This document shows positions 1 to 6,707 of a stretch of DNA of 12,019 nucleotides, in pieces; within the stretch, counting starts at the first letter, position 1, and the number at the start of each line of letters is the position of its first letter. The position numbers and the translations under genes were made by a program. The notes under the pieces were generated by a model. The model worked only from the letters and a program-made list of their open reading frames with translations. It was not told the DNA's origin and made no database searches. This DNA is from a virus, in IMG/VR virus record IMGVR_UViG_3300029955_000438. The stretch is one strand, 5' to 3'.

Positions 1-173
1 CCAATCGCGAAGAGCTCGAAGCCTTCCTCGCCAAGATGGAGGAGGAGATGCGCGAGGCCGCCAAGAAATTCGAATTCGAGCGCGCGGCCAAGATGCGCGA
101 TCTCATCCGCGAACTGCGATTGGAGAGAGATCGAAGAGGCAAGAGGACTAGCCGAAGCTGCGCTGACCAATAG
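1..173 (+). CDS. 3' fragment of a UVR-domain protein (UvrB/UvrC C-terminal-like helical hairpin); the 5' end lies outside the window
   Basis: Frame 3 is open from the window edge and translates as ...NREELEAFLAKMEEEMREAAKKFEFERAAKMRDLIRELRLERDRRGKRTSRSCADQ*. The core EEMREAAKKFEFERAAKMRDLIREL matches the UVR motif of the UvrB C-terminus (…EFEEAARLRDEI…). Stop codon TAG at 171-173. Confidence 0.55.
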   Translation, partial: NREELEAFLAKMEEEMREAAKKFEFERAAKMRDLIRELRLERDRRGKRTSRSCADQ

Positions 174-195: not shown

Positions 196-227
196 TAGCC
201 AAAAAGGTGTCAACCCCGGTATACTGT
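196..227 (+). promoter_or_regulatory. Sigma70-like promoter, copy 1 of a conserved phage promoter: -35 TAGCCA (196-201), 18-nt spacer, -10 TATACT (220-225) embedded in CCCCGGTATACTGT
   Basis: The 14-mer CCCGGTATACTGT recurs at 4324-4337 and 10059-10072, each about 20-25 nt upstream of an SD plus ATG. The spacing to a TAGNCA -35 element is 17-18 nt in all three copies. Confidence 0.6.
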
Positions 228-247: not shown

Positions 248-2656
248 ATGAAACTAGGAACCGCAGGTAGTGCAATGGAAGTTGGTGGGGCATTAACCCG
301 CCCCAGAGCATTCTCGTTCAACAACAGTGCTTTGGCTTTCAAGCTCTTTTCGTCGGGCATCTACAATAGCAAGATTGAAGCTATCCTCCGCGAATTGGCT
401 TGCAACGCCAGGGACGCTCATGTCGCTGCTGGCAAAGCCGACACACCTTTCGAGATTCACCTGCCTACCGCTTTCGACCCGACCTTCCGCCTTAATGACT
501 TCGGCACTGGCCTGAAGTACATCGAGGGGGGCTGCAAACAGTGCCATGGTGTTGGTCTTGTAGAGACCCAGCACGGTGATACCCCCTGCCCCGACTGCGA
601 CGGCACTGGCGACTATGATGCCGTCATTAGCCTGTACTGCATCTACTTCGCCAGCGACAAGAACGACTCCAATGAGTTCATCGGTGCCATGGGCATCGGC
701 TCCAAGAGCCCCTTCTGCTATGACGAAAAGGGCGGCGGATTCTCTATCACCAACCGCTACGAGGGTGTCACCCGCATCTATCAGGCAGCGGTACACAATG
801 GCTTCCCCACGGTCGTCCTTCAGAGCAAGGAGGATACCCCGGACTCCCCCAATGGGGTGGAAATTTCCCTCCCGGTAAAGATTGGTGACATCTGGGAGTT
901 TGAGAACAAGGCACGTAGTGTGTTCGAGTTCTTCTCCCCGTTGCCGATTTTCAACAAAGAAATTTCGATAAACAAACAGATTTACACCATCAGAACCGAG
1001 AAGTGGGGTCTGCGTGACAACACCGTCAGCACCATCAGCGGTCTCCGGGCGATTCAGGGCATCGTGCCCTACGATGTGGGCGACATCGACATCAGCCGCA
1101 TGAATACCCACCAGCGGCGTATCAGCGAGATGGAGTTGGATATCTTCCTCCCGATTGGCGACTTGGAAGTTACCGCTTCCCGCGAGTTCATTCAGTTGGA
1201 CGAACGTACTGTCGGCAACATCCTGAAGGCTCTAGACGGGGTTCATGAGGGGATGTTGGAGGAAATCAAGAAGAAGATTGACCAGTGCGCTGCTGTCTGG
1301 GAAGCACGGCTCCAGATTTACGACCTGACTTCGCGAGGCGGAAGCCTCGGCAAGATTGTCAACGATGCCTACAACAACGGTCTACTCTTGGGCAACTACA
1401 GCCACTTCACCATGAGCGATGAGATGGCCGTGGTCAACAAATCCGACTATGAGGGCATTCAGCTCACTCAGTACAGCTACAATTTTCGGGCTGAGAAGAG
1501 AGCCAAGAAGGAATCACTGTTCTCCTTCAACGCCGCGTCTGTCAAAAACATGCGTGACCGCATCGCAGAAGACCCGACATGCCGCAAGAACTACGATGTA
1601 CGGGTGGAAGTCGAGCCCAAGGTGGCCTTCGTCATCAATGACCTGAAGGTCTCTGCGGATAAGTACATTGGCTACTTCCTCCAGTGCGCGGTTGACCGTG
1701 GCGGCAAGACGTTGGTGTACTGCGTCAATCGTCAGAACAAGTCAGTGGACATGAGCACGGTGATGTCGCAGGGGCTCACCATGATGGAGAAGCTTGGCAA
1801 TCCGCCTGTCACCCTCGCTTCCGAGCTGAAGGCACGCTATGGCGAATTTGTGGACACTCCGCGAGAGAAGGGAGTAGCCATCCCCCGCCAACGCCGCAAC
1901 GTCTCGGTACTGGTGAACGAAGTGCCCCACCCCCGCCGTGGCAGCGCGGGCTGGGCGAAGGCTTGGGACAAGGCTGACAACGATGTCATCGACCTCCCCG
2001 GCATGAAGTATTACGTCATTACGGATGGCAGTGGCTCCGGCCACGAGTCCACGGGGTTCTACAAAGCCCGGGAGTTCGTGAGGTTTGTCAATTCGGTTCG
2101 CGAGTCGAACCTTCTGGATGTTCCGGTCTACGGTCTGAAGGCTAACTCGAAGCTGATTGAAGGTGCTGATTGGAAGCCCTACATGCCAGCGGTCTGGGCG
2201 GCTGTCAAGAAGCACATGACCCCGGCTCGTGAACAGCGCATGACCATGGTGGATTGCATTGGCAACTTCTCTACCAGTTGGGATTTCGTGTTCGATTACA
2301 TGACCGAGCACCCCATGGACGCAGAGAGCCCGGTACAGCAGTTCGTAGTCAAATTGAATAAGGCCAAGGAGAGCCGCACTAAGGCGGAAGGCACTGCGTT
2401 GCAGAGCGTACTTCAGGTAGCCGCCGCCCGTAATAAGTACACGATGCCGCAGCGAGTGGTTATCGACTTCGGGAAGAAGTGGGATGAAGTAAAAGAATTC
2501 TACCCGATGATGAAATATACTGGCCGTTCTAGCTGGATGGCTGGTACAATAGAGGAAGCGGTGGTAGTAACCAACTACTTCAAGCTGGAAGATGCGAATC
2601 GTGAAGCACAGTCCAGCATTAACGATAACATCAAGGAGATGACCGCATATGTCTAA
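248..2656 (+). CDS. rIIA: rIIA-like protein: N-terminal GHKL (Hsp90/MORC-type) ATPase domain with an inserted DnaJ-like zinc knuckle, followed by a large C-terminal region
   Basis: ATG at 248 is preceded by GGAGAGAAG (233-241). The track ORF starts at TTG 230, but 248 is better placed relative to the SD. Bergerat motifs are present: N-box ILRELACNARDAH (nt ~386-421; compare Hsp90 RELISNASDA), G1 box LNDFGTGL (nt 491-514), G2 box IGAMGIGSKSPF (nt 677-712; compare Hsp90 IGQFGVGFYSAF). Between G1 and G2 sits CKQCHGVG…CPDCDGTG (nt 533-610), i.e. 2x CxxCxGxG. The stop overlaps the start of the rIIB-like gene immediately downstream, matching the T4 rIIA-rIIB arrangement. Confidence 0.8.
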   Translation: MKLGTAGSAMEVGGALTRPRAFSFNNSALAFKLFSSGIYNSKIEAILRELACNARDAHVAAGKADTPFEIHLPTAFDPTFRLNDFGTGLKYIEGGCKQCHGVGLVETQHGDTPCPDCDGTGDYDAVISLYCIYFASDKNDSNEFIGAMGIGSKSPFCYDEKGGGFSITNRYEGVTRIYQAAVHNGFPTVVLQSKEDTPDSPNGVEISLPVKIGDIWEFENKARSVFEFFSPLPIFNKEISINKQIYTIRTEKWGLRDNTVSTISGLRAIQGIVPYDVGDIDISRMNTHQRRISEMELDIFLPIGDLEVTASREFIQLDERTVGNILKALDGVHEGMLEEIKKKIDQCAAVWEARLQIYDLTSRGGSLGKIVNDAYNNGLLLGNYSHFTMSDEMAVVNKSDYEGIQLTQYSYNFRAEKRAKKESLFSFNAASVKNMRDRIAEDPTCRKNYDVRVEVEPKVAFVINDLKVSADKYIGYFLQCAVDRGGKTLVYCVNRQNKSVDMSTVMSQGLTMMEKLGNPPVTLASELKARYGEFVDTPREKGVAIPRQRRNVSVLVNEVPHPRRGSAGWAKAWDKADNDVIDLPGMKYYVITDGSGSGHESTGFYKAREFVRFVNSVRESNLLDVPVYGLKANSKLIEGADWKPYMPAVWAAVKKHMTPAREQRMTMVDCIGNFSTSWDFVFDYMTEHPMDAESPVQQFVVKLNKAKESRTKAEGTALQSVLQVAAARNKYTMPQRVVIDFGKKWDEVKEFYPMMKYTGRSSWMAGTIEEAVVVTNYFKLEDANREAQSSINDNIKEMTAYV

Positions 2657-3881
2657 CCTACAGGCAGCAGTACCCTACATCATGACGCCCGATTTCGTAT
2701 CGGTAATCGTCAGAGGACGCTCGTTCCAGTTGGTTCCCAGCCACCCGACATTCAAGCAGGTGGTCGCTGCCCTGAAGGCAAAGGCGTGGGCGAAGATTCC
2801 GAAACTGGTCTCGCTGGCGGAGCAGATTGCCAACCAAAGCCACGGCCACGTCAAGATTGAAAGGGGTCTGGTGACATACAAAGGCCGCGAAGTCAACTCG
2901 ACTCTGACCAAGCGGATGCTTGAACTCATCGACCACGGTCAGCCTGTGGCTTCGCTGCTGAAGTTCATGGACAACCTGTACAAGAACCCGCAGCCGGAAG
3001 CTATCTCTGAGTTCTACGAGTGGCTGATGGATAACGAGTTGCCGATCTATGACGACGGTACCTTCGCGGCGTATAAGTACGTCCGTGACGACTACACGGA
3101 TACCCACACGGGTACCGTACTGAACACACCCGGCGAAATCATCATCACTTCCCGCAACCTGGTGGACGCCAACTGGCGGACGCAATGCGCCTCAGGCTAC
3201 CACGTGTGCTCGAAGAAGTATGGCACGTATGGTTCGAAGTGCATGGAGGTGAAAATTCACCCGCGTGATGTCCTCTCGGCCAACGGTGGCAAGATGCGTG
3301 TCACCCGCTACGAAGTCATGAGAGAACTTGGTAACAAGGACGAAATCGAGTTCACGGCTGAGGGCTACGCTGAGTTGGAGGGTAAGGGCGTGCTGGCTAT
3401 TAACAAGGAACGTCGCGACCTGATTAAGGCTTTGACCTCGCTCCCGGCTGTAAAGCGTCTGGTGCGTAACAAGAAGCTGAACCCCAAGTCATTCCGTAAG
3501 GCATCACTGGTTCGTTTGCAGAGTTGGCTCACGAAGTTCGGCGAGACGGTTCCGGTGGAACAGTCCAAGCTGTTCGAGAACCCGCTTCGCCCCGCACGTG
3601 TGGCGGCTAAGCTGACCACTTCGCAGGTGGCAAAGGCCATGGACGTGTCCACGGCTGAGGCATACAACCTCGAACGCAAGAAAAACCCCACACAGGACGA
3701 GATTGACTCGTATCTCGAAGGAATCATCGCTCTGACTAAGGCTGCCGGGGTTGCTTACCCAACACCTGCGTCAGCAGTCCCGGAGGAAGATGAGCGCGTC
3801 GATCTGGGCGAGCCCTCCGACGAGGAAGATGAGTACGAGGAAGATGAGGACTGTGACGAGGAAGACGACGGGGGTTACTAA
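2649..3881 (+). CDS. rIIB: rIIB-like protein with an extended C-terminus ending in a polyacidic tail
   Basis: ATG at 2649 lies inside ATGTCTAA, overlapping the rIIA stop at 2654-2656. AAGGAGA sits 9 nt upstream. The core …YDDGTFAAYKYVRDDY…TQCASGYHVCSKKYGTYGSKCMEVKIHPRDVLSANGGKMRVTRYEVM… aligns with the T4 rIIB core (…GYFYAWKVVRSNY…CSRGLHVCSKSY…VKVHPRDVVS…KMRTCQYEVV…). The C-terminus is DEEDEYEEDEDCDEEDDGGY. Confidence 0.85.
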   Translation: MSNLQAAVPYIMTPDFVSVIVRGRSFQLVPSHPTFKQVVAALKAKAWAKIPKLVSLAEQIANQSHGHVKIERGLVTYKGREVNSTLTKRMLELIDHGQPVASLLKFMDNLYKNPQPEAISEFYEWLMDNELPIYDDGTFAAYKYVRDDYTDTHTGTVLNTPGEIIITSRNLVDANWRTQCASGYHVCSKKYGTYGSKCMEVKIHPRDVLSANGGKMRVTRYEVMRELGNKDEIEFTAEGYAELEGKGVLAINKERRDLIKALTSLPAVKRLVRNKKLNPKSFRKASLVRLQSWLTKFGETVPVEQSKLFENPLRPARVAAKLTTSQVAKAMDVSTAEAYNLERKKNPTQDEIDSYLEGIIALTKAAGVAYPTPASAVPEEDERVDLGEPSDEEDEYEEDEDCDEEDDGGY

Positions 3882-3987: not shown

Positions 3988-4308
3988 ATGAGCGCGAGTA
4001 AGTGGGCACAGTGCCCACGATGCACAATAAACAACGAGAAGGAAGCTGATAAAAAGGACAGGGAGGCTCTCCTTTCCTACGGAAAAGTCACCCCAGAGCG
4101 GTACCTTGCTCAGCTTACGGAGGCCGCAAAGTACAGGGCTGACTTGCGCTCCGAAGACCAGTGTACGCTCCGGGAAGACTACACGCTGGGCACGCTTATC
4201 TACAAAGAATTCAATGGCCAGATAGCGTTTTACGTGCGATATTCCTCTCGCTGCGACCGATGCGGCTGGAAATTTACGTTTACGCACGATGAAGAGCTAA
4301 AATTGTAG
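3988..4308 (+). CDS. Small (106 aa) zinc-ribbon-like protein of unknown function
   Basis: SD AGGGGGA sits upstream of ATG 3988. There are two CxxC pairs, CPRC near the N-terminus and CDRC near the C-terminus. The gene sits between the rIIB terminator and the Ku promoter with no promoter of its own. Its stop TAG (4306-4308) overlaps the -35 of the next promoter. Confidence 0.6.
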   Translation: MSASKWAQCPRCTINNEKEADKKDREALLSYGKVTPERYLAQLTEAAKYRADLRSEDQCTLREDYTLGTLIYKEFNGQIAFYVRYSSRCDRCGWKFTFTHDEELKL

Positions 4309-4337
4309 ACAAATCTGGTACTTCCCCGGTATACTGT
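4306..4337 (+). promoter_or_regulatory. Conserved promoter, copy 2: -35 TAGACA (4306-4311), 18-nt spacer, -10 TATACT (4330-4335) within CCCCGGTATACTGT; drives the Ku gene
   Basis: Near-identical to the copy at 10042-10072 (TGTTAGACAAA…CCCGGTATACTGTAAA). It is followed by SD AAGGAGA (4344-4350) and ATG 4360. Confidence 0.65.
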
Positions 4338-4359
4338 AAACATAAGGAGAAACACCAAA

Positions 4360-5346
4360 ATGGCAAAGGCAAAGAACACATCGAAGACCGAAACCCCCGT
4401 CGCGGCTCCCGCGAAGCCTAGTGTCGCCGACCTCTCCAGCAAGTTGAACAACCTTCTCCACCCGAAGGTTGAGTTCGCCGATGTGAACGCCGCCGCCCCC
4501 GAGAAGGTTGGCTGTGGCCGTTCGACTTGGTCGGGTAAGCTGGTCGTCATCGAGGGCGCGAATGGCCTGACCGTCCCCGTCAAGACCTACAAGGTCATTG
4601 AGGACTCCGAGAAGTTCAAGACCAACATGATTCACCAGTGCAACCACGAAGCCTCTGAAGAGGCTCCCGTGTACGGACAGCTTAAGCAGGGTGCGATGAA
4701 GTGTGAGGCGTGCGAGGCGATTGTCGAGCGTGCCCAGTCCCTGAAGGGCATGAAGGATGACGACGGCAAGTTTTTCGTCATCACTGACGACGAGAAGAAG
4801 GGCTGCATGGTTCTGGCCGACAAGGTCATGACCGTTGAGAAGCTGGTTCCGGCGACGGAAGTTGACCCCCTGTACTTCGAAGCTGCCGAGTACCTCGGAG
4901 CCGATGGTGGTTCGATTGTCGAACGCGCCCTCGCCGTCTTCCGCGAGATGCTGGTGAGCACGGGTCAGGTGGCTGTTGCTCAGACCGCTCAGAGGGGGCG
5001 TGAACAGACTGTCATCATCCGCCCTTTGAAGGTTGGTCTGGCGGTTCACTTCGTGTACTTCGAACACGAAATCCGCATCTTCGACAAGGTTGCCCCGGTT
5101 GTCCTGAGCGAGGACGAGAAGACTCTGGCGAAGCAGCTTGGCGAGGCGATGTCTGACAAGTTCGTCTCCTCGGACTACAACGACAAGTTCTCGATTCGCT
5201 TCCGCAACCTGCTGACCGCCAAGAAGGCTGGCGTGGCCGCTCCTGAAGTCAAGAAGCAGGACGCCACCGCAGTGGTCACGGTTGACCTGATGGCCGCTTT
5301 GAAGGCTTCACTGGCCAACAAGAAGGCTGCAAAGGCTGGTAAGTAA
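4360..5346 (+). CDS. ku: Ku-like DNA end-binding protein (NHEJ Ku homologue) with an N-terminal K/A/P-rich extension and a basic C-terminal tail
   Basis: Matches to bacterial Ku: RSTWSGKLV…VPVKTY (compare Mku RAIWTGSIAFGLVNVPVKVY), CEACEAIV (compare CEACGEVV), FFVITDDE (compare MVAITDDD), EVDPLYFE (compare DVDPMMFD), HFVYFEHEIR (compare HTLLWPDEIR). The C-terminal VDLMAALKASLANKKAAKAGK resembles the lysine-rich Ku tail. About 50 extra residues (MAKAKNTSKTETPVAAPAKPS…) precede the core. Confidence 0.85.
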   Translation: MAKAKNTSKTETPVAAPAKPSVADLSSKLNNLLHPKVEFADVNAAAPEKVGCGRSTWSGKLVVIEGANGLTVPVKTYKVIEDSEKFKTNMIHQCNHEASEEAPVYGQLKQGAMKCEACEAIVERAQSLKGMKDDDGKFFVITDDEKKGCMVLADKVMTVEKLVPATEVDPLYFEAAEYLGADGGSIVERALAVFREMLVSTGQVAVAQTAQRGREQTVIIRPLKVGLAVHFVYFEHEIRIFDKVAPVVLSEDEKTLAKQLGEAMSDKFVSSDYNDKFSIRFRNLLTAKKAGVAAPEVKKQDATAVVTVDLMAALKASLANKKAAKAGK

Positions 5347-5353
5347 CGACATC

Positions 5354-5385
5354 GTGGGGGTAGGCTAGCACCCCGCCCCCACTTT
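5354..5385 (+). terminator. Possible weak terminator hairpin after ku
   Basis: GTGGGGG (5354-5360) pairs with CCCCCAC (5376-5382) across a 15-nt loop that contains the GCTAGC palindrome. It is followed by only TTT, so it is weak. Confidence 0.35.
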
Positions 5386-5770: not shown

Positions 5771-6595
5771 ATGCTACACTTCATATTCCCGGCTGACCCG
5801 CTGAACCCGAAAAAGCTGGATGAGTATTTCGCCCCGCAGGCGTCCGCTCTGAAACGCTACCCCAACTCTGTGTACTCCACTGAGGCAGGTGGAATCTGGG
5901 GAGATTGCAGTAACAACCCGAGAGGGTTCGATGGTGCTGTGGTAGTGTATCGTGGCTGGATGCTAAACTCGGCTGAATACCGCGCTATGACAGACAAGGT
6001 GAAGACGATGGGTGGGCGGCTGTTTACTCGCCCGGAGGACTACATTCGCTGTCACCACCTGCCGTGCTGGTACCCGCTGATAGCGGGGCTGACTCCTGAT
6101 ACTGTAGTTTTTCCTGAGTTCTGTTTCACCCCGCAGTTCAACCTCGTGCTGGCTCTACAGGCATTGGGGTGGGAGCACTACTTTATCAAGGACTATGTGA
6201 AGTCCCTGAAGCTGGAGAACCATCCATCGGTGACGACACCGCAAGATGTCCTCACACTGCTTGATGCCATGACAAAATTCCGTGGCAAGTTGGAGGGCGG
6301 CATCTGTGTTCGCCGGGTGGAGAAACTGACCGACGAACGCCGCTTCTTCGTTATCCAAGGACGGACTATCGGGGTTTCGGGGGAGTGGGCAAAGGTGGAC
6401 ACCAACGGTATTTACGACCTGCTTGAGACTGTTCGTACCCGCGTGGCGTCTCCCTTCTACTCCGTGGACATCGCGATTCGCGACGACGGCCAGCCTCGGG
6501 TGGTAGAAATTGGAGACGGTCAAGTATCAGACTTGGTTGGTAACTGGACCCCGGAGGCGTTTGCCAACATTTGGGCCGGAGTGTACCATGATTAA
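5771..6595 (+). CDS. ATP-grasp superfamily enzyme (probable peptide/amino-acid ligase; R2K/RimK-like clade is a guess)
   Basis: The C-terminal half carries the ATP-grasp catalytic-core pattern …RRFFVIQGRTIGVSGEWAKVDTNG…FYSVDIAIRDDGQPRVVEIGDGQVSDLVGN… (E-x-G/N metal-binding loop). Start ATG 5771 follows GGAGGTAGAAAGGGTGG. The upstream in-frame extension to GTG 5687 has rare codons and AT-rich third positions, so I reject it. The stop overlaps the next ORF. Confidence 0.7.
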   Translation: MLHFIFPADPLNPKKLDEYFAPQASALKRYPNSVYSTEAGGIWGDCSNNPRGFDGAVVVYRGWMLNSAEYRAMTDKVKTMGGRLFTRPEDYIRCHHLPCWYPLIAGLTPDTVVFPEFCFTPQFNLVLALQALGWEHYFIKDYVKSLKLENHPSVTTPQDVLTLLDAMTKFRGKLEGGICVRRVEKLTDERRFFVIQGRTIGVSGEWAKVDTNGIYDLLETVRTRVASPFYSVDIAIRDDGQPRVVEIGDGQVSDLVGNWTPEAFANIWAGVYHD

Positions 6596-6707
6596 ATTTT
6601 GGGACAGGTTGCTCAAGTCGGAAGTCGATATAGTTCGTACCTTGATAAACCTCACCTTGATTCACGAGGTCGATTTTTACTTGGGAGACGATAGTGAAGA
6701 AGAATAA
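6588..6707 (+). CDS. Micro-ORF (39 aa, MIKFWDRLLKSEVDIVRTLINLTLIHEVDFYLGDDSEEE) bridging the ATP-grasp and Pth2 genes
   Basis: ATG 6588 lies within CCATGATTAA, overlapping the ATP-grasp stop at 6593-6595. Its stop at 6705-6707 overlaps the Pth2 GTG start at 6694. It may be a genuine coupling peptide or only an artefact of the overlap. Confidence 0.3.
   Translation: MIKFWDRLLKSEVDIVRTLINLTLIHEVDFYLGDDSEEE

Follow-up and report, generated by a model that had tools for sequence, protein, structure and literature searches.

What does a bacterial virus do with a Ku protein of its own, and which ligase, if any, would act with it? The question is raised by the viral record IMGVR_UViG_3300029955_000438 of IMG/VR, a DNA stretch of 12,019 nt (called the window below), in which the open reading frame (ORF) 4360..5346 on the + strand codes for a Ku-like protein. 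A first-pass annotation of this DNA described the protein as a Ku with an N-terminal extension absent from canonical Ku and with no ligase partner in view. The comparisons presented here indicate that the extension marks a distinct lineage of Ku proteins and that the phage carries, beyond the window, a minimal DNA ligase of its own. The reading favoured, with a probability of about one half, is that of a phage module for end binding and for end joining or end protection, in which Ku would shield DNA ends and recruit the ligase.

A bacterial-type Ku with an additional N-terminal arm

The ORF comprises 328 codons plus the stop, and the N-terminus of the 328-aa product agrees with the sequence quoted in the first-pass annotation. 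That this product is a Ku has been borne out both by profile searches and by fold comparison. The Pfam profile of Ku (PF02735) matches residues 69-245 with 74.2 bits against a cut-off of 25 (E = 1.7e-20), and PHROG 4873, "Ku-like DNA end binding", matches with E = 2.4e-29. The NCBIfam model Ku_bact (TIGR02772) gives E = 4.3e-39 and a score of 134.5 bits, which is under the equivalog cut-off of 150; judged by its sequence, the window Ku is a clear homologue of Ku_bact, too divergent for automatic equivalog naming. The PDB sequences of the B. subtilis and M. tuberculosis Ku align with it from residue 70 (E ~1e-14). An AlphaFold2 model of the monomer, built on 110 homologues, has a mean predicted local distance difference test score (pLDDT) of 83. 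Foldseek places it closest to two solved structures of bacterial Ku, 9i91 and 9vnq (E ~2e-11), and eukaryotic Ku70/80 come next; the solved Ku that agree best with the predicted fold are those of M. tuberculosis and B. subtilis. Since the Pfam, PHROG, NCBIfam, PDB, and fold matches all point to Ku, the gene may be regarded as genuine, and the ORF is predicted to encode a bona fide bacterial-type Ku. Its sole Pfam match is Ku, the Gam profile giving none at E <= 0.1, and the two significant matches in BFVD are both phage Ku proteins, with no Gam among them.

The core, which includes the beta-barrel, the bridge, and the pillar helices, extends over residues 54-290 (4519..5229, +), as judged by Pfam, the alignment, and the PDB and Foldseek matches. 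The protein has in common with the Ku of M. tuberculosis (Rv0937c) and B. subtilis (YkoV), both of PF02735/TIGR02772, the core fold, the bridge, the minimal C-terminal helix DLMAALKxSL, and a Lys-rich C-terminal end, and by analogy it presumably forms the same homodimeric ring on DNA ends. It differs from them in a 12-residue insertion in the bridge, in being phage-encoded and not located beside a multidomain LigD, in falling below the NCBIfam cut-off, and in both termini, as described below. The bridge also bears a Cys/His remnant of a zinc ribbon (C92/H94...C115/C118); these residues were considered as a special trait of the N-extended lineage and rejected, being common in canonical Ku too.

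The N-terminal arm, delimited from alignments and the AlphaFold2 model, comprises residues 1-53 (4360..4518, +), whereas cellular Ku has only 2-4 residues at this place, and the 17 N-terminal residues of B. subtilis Ku have been called "unusually long" (PMC4889933). In the alignment of 110 Ku, a nearly invariant Arg of the core is preceded by 53 residues in the window Ku and by 36-61 in its six closest relatives, against a median of 3 and a maximum of 15 in the other 103. Thus, a core starting within a few residues of the N-terminus is not found here (53 residues versus a median of 2-3), and the extension is indeed foreign to canonical Ku. It had been described as K/A/P-rich, which is true but incomplete: it is more than a stretch of low complexity, and a conserved amphipathic helix and a PxEKK motif are common to the whole lineage. 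The layout of the arm includes a basic MAK(A/K)K tip (MAKAK in the window Ku; "MAK" are the first residues in 28 of 58 N-extended proteins), a variable linker rich in A, P, K, and T, the helix, a second linker, and PxEKK abutting the core (P47-E48-K49 in the window Ku). The helix, VADLSSKLNNLL, runs from V22 to L33 (4423..4458, +) and follows the lineage-wide amphipathic motif [VI]-A-[DE]-L-S-A-x-L-x-x-x-[LM]. In the model, the pLDDT values of the arm per 10-residue block are 55, 74, 87, 63, and 62, the block of 87 being that of the helix. A confident helix between low-confidence flanks is the typical pattern of a binding helix on a flexible tether.

At the opposite end, a linker and the "minimal C-terminus" helix, …TVDLMAALKASL, occupy residues 291-318 (5230..5313, +). 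Among the 110 Ku, D309, L314, and L318 are invariant, and L310 and M311 nearly so; the DLMAALKxSL helix is kept in the window Ku and strictly conserved in the N-extended lineage. In B. subtilis Ku, the minimal C-terminus is needed for LigD binding (PMC4889933). The helix is followed by a short basic tail, ANKKAAKAGK (5314..5343, +), defined by the alignment and by measurement against a hidden Markov model (HMM) of the core. The lysine-rich tail reported earlier is therefore present, with 4 Lys, but is reduced to 10 residues and is not of typical length. Indeed, in the 110-Ku alignment, 10-21 residues follow the helix in the seven N-extended proteins, against a median of 34 and a minimum of 15 in the others. 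The extended C-terminus of bacterial Ku is variable, with lengths of 1-155 but usually tens of residues and a mean isoelectric point of ~11.4, and in B. subtilis Ku this basic region contacts DNA, favours bridging, and restricts threading (PMC4889933). For the Ku of M. tuberculosis, DNA affinity and the stimulation of ligase are modulated by both regions of the C-terminus (PMC9638933).

Could the extension be an annotation artefact, with the true start near residue 54? Two in-frame codons that would permit a later start, TTG (codon 29) and GTG (codon 42), are present in the arm. However, no possible start lies between the preceding in-frame stop and ATG 4360, and immediately upstream of this ATG there are both a Shine-Dalgarno sequence, AAGGAG, read from the sequence 10 nt before the ATG (4344..4349, +), and a sigma-70-like promoter (4306..4335, +) with the -35 element TAGACA (4306-4311), an 18-nt spacer, and the -10 element TATACT (4330-4335) within CCGGTATACTGT. 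The next Met of the ORF, M100, is already within the beta-barrel. Moreover, the layout of the arm and its helix are kept in relatives at 33-41% identity and in ~35-45 clusters at 50% identity. In these relatives, the arm ATG is preceded by a TATACT/TATATT element; a -10 of the TATACT type stands directly upstream of it in five of the six relatives or lineages examined, none being evident in the 75-kb IMG/VR viral contig L011. In two of them, L028 (~1745-1769) and L041 (~6240-6263), TATACT is only 6 nt from the Ku ATG and there is no Shine-Dalgarno sequence, which suggests leaderless Ku mRNAs that start at the arm start codon itself. In the window phage, the leader would be ~18 nt long and contain AAGGAG, if the transcript starts ~7 nt past the -10. 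A mis-called start was thus rejected, since the position of the promoter and the Shine-Dalgarno sequence and the conservation of the arm at the protein level contradict it, and we regard an artefact as hardly credible. A test of the arm by synonymous variation was uninformative, as the DNA of the gene does not differ among ten metagenome copies (100% identity).

The promoter of Ku was said to be dedicated and conserved, and this too has been confirmed. Promoter scanning and a 12-mer search reveal two further copies, one upstream of rIIA (196..225, +; ATG 248) and one upstream of a gene for a 241-aa protein (10042..10070, +; ATG 10091). The window contains exactly three copies of the 12-mer CCGGTATACTGT, all on the + strand (216-227, 4326, and 10061-10072), which end 19-23 nt before the ATG of rIIA, Ku, and the 241-aa gene; 0.06 copies are expected, and none of 200 shuffles reaches three. 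The spacers of the copies differ by 1 nt, and a fixed-spacer pattern therefore matched nothing.

How widespread is such a Ku? A profile of the seven N-extended proteins was searched against 1.84 billion representative proteins; ~50 of the matches listed stand above the canonical-Ku plateau, and most of them start within profile positions 1-35 and so include the arm. When overhangs are measured against a core-only HMM, the N-extended group (n = 58) has a median N-terminal overhang of 45 residues and a median C-tail of 11.5, and the canonical group (n = 83) has medians of 2 and 28, respectively. A neighbour-joining tree of core columns only contains one clade of 35 sequences, of which 34 are extended, with the window protein within it; extended sequences outside this clade have short or unrelated extensions. 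On these comparisons, the arm defines a distinct Ku lineage of ~35-45 clusters at 50% identity, with an arm of 35-60 residues and a shortened basic tail. All members with readable context are located on phage-like contigs, usually in the order rIIA-rIIB-Ku. One homologue, P0002, is 87% identical to the window Ku, and among 15 Ku loci of IMG/VR this type of arm is present only in L011.

The 43 nearest cellular Ku are 24-33% identical, mostly from metagenome-assembled genomes (MAGs) of Acidobacteriota, several of them from peat/bog projects, and all begin with "MA(T/S)xVWKG" and have no arm. This hints, weakly, at an Acidobacteriota host or gene donor. Phage Ku as such is known but rare: two surveys list 11 phages each (PMC11936186, PMC8136500), one of them only actinophages. 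A review of 224 jumbo-phage genomes gave no match to LigD in its accessible text, and the sole mention of Ku there is within the title of a reference. Searches of open-access full text found no account of a Ku lineage extended at the N-terminus, nor of such a Ku paired with a minimal ligase of the type described below. What appears to be new is thus a sizeable N-extended lineage on phage-like contigs that travels with a minimal ligase in a family of large phages with rII genes.

A minimal ligase downstream of Ku

The absence of a ligase partner holds true for the 12-kb window, in which Pfam and PHROG scans reveal no encoded ligase, but not for the phage. The same phage contig, Ga0311363_10006731, bears a ligase-like gene on the same strand, 15.3 kb downstream of Ku (L032:19066-19796), cut by the end of the locus. 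Upstream of it stands TAGACAAACCCCCGGTACTCCCCGTATACT, a promoter of the Ku type (TAGACAAA...TATACT); Ku is thus predicted to have its own sigma-70-like promoter of a type common to rIIA and the phage ligase gene. Orthologues are found on the same strand 8.7 kb downstream of Ku in the phage of the P0005 lineage and 14.4 kb downstream in that of the P0003 lineage, and ligase loci in relatives include L028:11449-12264 and L038:10001-10786. Ku and the ligase occur together in all three lineages in which at least 15 kb downstream of Ku can be read.

The members of this family are 261-271 aa long and consist of nucleotidyltransferase and OB domains, with a Pfam match to DNA_ligase_A_M (E = 1e-13). 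The best NCBIfam models are the ligase domain of non-homologous end joining (NHEJ), TIGR02779, followed by LigD and LigC-like models, all of them with scores far below the cut-offs. A consensus of 37 homologues shows conserved blocks that we take to be the nucleotidyltransferase motifs I, III, IIIa, IV, V, and VI. The AlphaFold2 model reaches a pLDDT of 94.4, and Foldseek relates it to human LigIV, archaeal ligases, and the ligase domain of M. tuberculosis LigD, the last being the most sequence-identical structural match (19%). Sequence and model together predict that the phage encodes a minimal DNA ligase that is ATP-dependent and closest, by family, to the ligase domains of LigD and LigC. 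The family also has a conserved Cys-containing C-terminal tail, and automatic annotation often names its members "LigD".

The resemblance to bacterial NHEJ by Ku and LigD lies in the combination of a Ku with an ATP-dependent ligase that best matches the NHEJ ligase domain TIGR02779. Because the phage and two divergent relatives encode the minimal ligase, dependence on host LigD, as in Omega and Corndog, need not be assumed.

End joining, end protection, and the role of the arm

The favoured reading may be set out as follows. Ku would be made from a promoter of the class used by rIIA, probably early by analogy with T4 rII. Its homodimeric ring would thread onto double-stranded ends of phage DNA, either genome termini or breaks made by host nucleases, and, once loaded, would shield them from exonucleases. 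The retained minimal C-terminal helix, probably along with the extra N-terminal helix on its flexible basic tether, would recruit a ligase, most likely the minimal ATP-dependent enzyme of the phage itself, which would reseal the ends. The arm may take over some of the DNA contact and partner recruitment for which cellular Ku uses its long basic C-terminal extension, by supplying a further tethered helix and a degree of basic charge that make up for the shortened C-tail. A plausible selective reason for such an end-joining kit is provided by the PhiKMV-type system, in which, according to the accessible part of a preprint (bioRxiv 10.64898/2026.09.21.753257), a phage ligase reseals double-strand breaks made by CRISPR and restriction nucleases; that part describes the repair as ligase-dependent and does not mention Ku. 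The functions proposed in the first-pass annotation, i.e., end protection, circularisation, and a recruitment arm, remain plausible.

Several observations weigh against joint action of Ku and the ligase. Motif I of the ligase reads KxNG in 36 of the 37 homologues, not the canonical KxDG. The ligase gene lies 9-15 kb from Ku rather than adjacent to it, so that, in distinction to the Ku-LigD system, there is no operon, and no polymerase or phosphoesterase domain of LigD is seen in the ~36 kb available. On the contig of one homologue, the ligase is located near genes for a DnaG-like primase and DNA polymerase A; it may therefore be a general replication ligase. Finally, headful packaging with terminal redundancy is the general rule in large phages of the rII type, and end joining would then not be needed to circularise the genome.

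The distance between the two genes and the replication genes near one ligase also fit an end protector of the Gam kind, with Ku capping ends and blocking host exonucleases without any ligation and with the ligase serving replication. In that case, the short basic C-tail and the arm could serve to adjust how Ku contacts DNA and not how it binds a partner. That phages profit from end capping by itself is exemplified by T4 gp2 and Mu Gam. The Gam precedent is one of possible functional analogy only, the families being different at the sequence level; in the passage of PMC8136500 that cites Bhattacharyya 2018, Mu Gam is stated to block exonucleases and to be able to promote joining with host ligase. 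Against pure end protection stand the strict conservation in the lineage of the minimal C-terminal helix, the LigD-interaction region of B. subtilis Ku (PMC4889933), the co-occurrence of Ku and ligase in every lineage readable far enough downstream, with similar promoters in the window phage, and the fact that the nearest named family of the ligase is an NHEJ ligase domain. On balance, we consider it somewhat unlikely, though to be taken seriously.

The conserved minimal C-terminus could alternatively serve to recruit LigD of the host, short cohesive ends being joined and the genome circularised after injection, as in the mycobacteriophages Omega and Corndog. These phages infect Actinobacteria and, according to the passage in PMC12848934 that cites Pitcher 2006, reportedly lack a ligase and use host LigD to join their cos ends. 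Their Ku proteins (Omega gp206, Corndog gp87) are, like the window Ku, phage-encoded and of bacterial type, and are 26-28% identical to it over the core; a tblastn search with Ku found actinophage Ku alone, at ~27% identity. The nearest cellular Ku are those of Acidobacteriota MAGs, and in two of these loci (L059 and L085) a LigD-sized ligase gene lies beside Ku. However, the window phage has its own ligase and its rIIA-rIIB-Ku neighbourhood, and the parallel is incomplete, for Omega gp206 begins at the core without an arm, and the window Ku belongs to the separate N-extended clade and not to the actinophage group. We consider recruitment of host LigD improbable.

A fourth explanation concerns the arm itself, which might be a targeting or packaging signal that loads Ku into the capsid for co-injection or directs it to a phage compartment. 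A conserved tip ("MAK" in about half of the N-extended proteins) and a short helix on a flexible linker do resemble a short linear targeting motif, and a protein that protects incoming ends would presumably gain from being injected with them. Against this, the gene stands among non-structural genes and has a promoter of the type common to rIIA, and the motif of the arm helix was found on no other phage protein in the readable loci. We consider such a signal very improbable.

Does the arm resemble another part of Ku? The arm helix VADLSSKLNNLL weakly resembles the C-terminal helix TVDLMAALKASL, and in HMMER the C-terminal part of the core model matches the arm too, as a weak secondary hit. In an HMM of the C-terminal arm built from canonical Ku only, real arms score 1.33 bits on average against 0.12±0.21 for shuffles, and a softer position-specific scoring matrix (PSSM; 44 sequences) gives a mean z of 0.68, with 23% above z 1.64; a strict PSSM (7 sequences) gives no significant similarity. 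In hhalign, no non-trivial part of Ku other than the C-terminal helix resembles the arm. The similarity is nevertheless weak: single arms score <=7.7 bits in the HMM, and the sequences are related to each other; Smith-Waterman self-alignments give a mean z of 0.47; and the hhalign match of the two profiles, though in register, has P = 0.016. The likeness would fit a ligase-recruiting helix that was duplicated or that arose by convergence, and should be treated as a lead, not a finding. The role of the arm as a whole, its likeness to the ligase-binding C-terminal helix included, is something that we only infer.

A bolder version of the favoured reading takes this likeness at face value. The N-terminal arm would be a relocated or duplicated C-terminal ligase-recruiting arm, with a Lys-rich start, a P/A-rich linker, and a DL-x-A-x-L helix, giving four recruiting helices per dimer; together with the KxNG ligase, it would provide a family of large phages, probably jumbo phages, with a self-contained system of end joining that reseals breaks made by host restriction, CRISPR, or other nucleases as a repair-based counter-defence. 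We offer this proposal as rather unlikely in its full form.

If Ku and the ligase do work together, these phages carry an autonomous kit for end protection or end joining, which bears on how they survive DNA-cutting defences. The lineage is, moreover, a natural experiment on the control that the flexible arms of Ku exert over threading on DNA, synapsis, and the recruitment of a ligase. The small size of the two proteins and the sharp definition of their motifs make the hypotheses directly testable.

Genome neighbourhood and other viral Ku genes

A near-identity DNA search with the window in full retrieved none of 50,697 phage records, and hence no cultured phage that matches at the DNA level. 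The exact window Ku protein is present on 20 metagenome contigs, the longest of 36 kb, with the same gene order in all. Upstream of Ku, the window encodes rIIA-like and rIIB-like proteins (PHROG E = 1e-98 and 2e-56, respectively). The order rIIA-rIIB-Ku is seen in the window, L026/L028, L039, L041, and L011, and hence in four other lineages, namely P0005, P0006, P0004, and L011. It is kept (248..3881, + for the rII genes of the window) although Ku is only 33-41% identical, which may reflect simple synteny or a functional link of rII proteins to DNA-end handling. Members of the P0005 lineage are on contigs of 101-124 kb, with up to 310 kb indexed. In the P0003 lineage, the neighbours of Ku are still the PTH2-like and vault-like proteins described below.

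The window opens within the 3' end of a gene (36..173, +) whose 217-aa product bears the "UVR" motif of UvrB/UvrC. The gene at this position on another contig of the phage is called as a 200-aa C-terminal fragment of UvrB (Helicase_C + UvrB + UVR; loci L001:5161-5814 and L003:9-611), and it could be either a phage-borne derivative of uvrB or a gene call truncated by the contig end. The rIIA protein of the window contains a DnaJ-type CXXCXGXG zinc-finger-like insert at about residues 96-129, seen as weak Pfam matches. Between rIIB and Ku, a 106-aa zinc-ribbon-like protein with a CxxC...CxxC pattern is encoded (3988..4308, +) in the window phage only; in relatives, Ku directly follows rIIB.

Directly after the Ku stop codon, there is a G+C-rich hairpin (5354..5382, +; -18.4 kcal/mol, z = -1.87), which the terminator scan of the window did not call. 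Ten of 200 shuffles fold as well, so that its stability is marginal, and, with its short T-run, it is a candidate for a weak terminator at best. Farther downstream lie genes for an R2K-clade ATP-grasp protein (5771..6595, +; PF14243, E = 6e-18) and for a homologue of the PTH2-like peptidyl-tRNA hydrolase (6694..7122, +; E = 1e-5), the latter being kept near Ku in relatives. They are followed by an 819-aa protein similar to the major vault protein (7253..9712, +; MVP_shoulder E = 3.5e-26, Vault_3 E = 1e-9) with no PHROG match. Vault-like proteins of related phages are encoded a few kb downstream of their Ku genes as well (L028:4715-7273 and L029:12787-15411; phmmer E ~1e-291), and viral MVPs have been reported in a preprint (10.1101/2023.11.10.566534). 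Collagen- and carbohydrate-binding-module-bearing proteins of fibre size are located still further downstream of Ku.

Finally, other viral contigs of IMG/VR display different arrangements of Ku. The contig L024 (IMG/VR 3300012794_000012) bears two different canonical Ku genes, adjacent and convergent (9710-10600, + and ~10603-11463, -), whose products could be a heterodimeric Ku. An arm-less Ku is accompanied by a ligase-like ORF on three contigs, adjoining it in L013:10834-11727 and L025:10876-12279 and lying ~9 kb downstream in L020:19478-20698. Judging by these loci, Ku-plus-ligase pairs may be commoner in viral contigs than the literature suggests.

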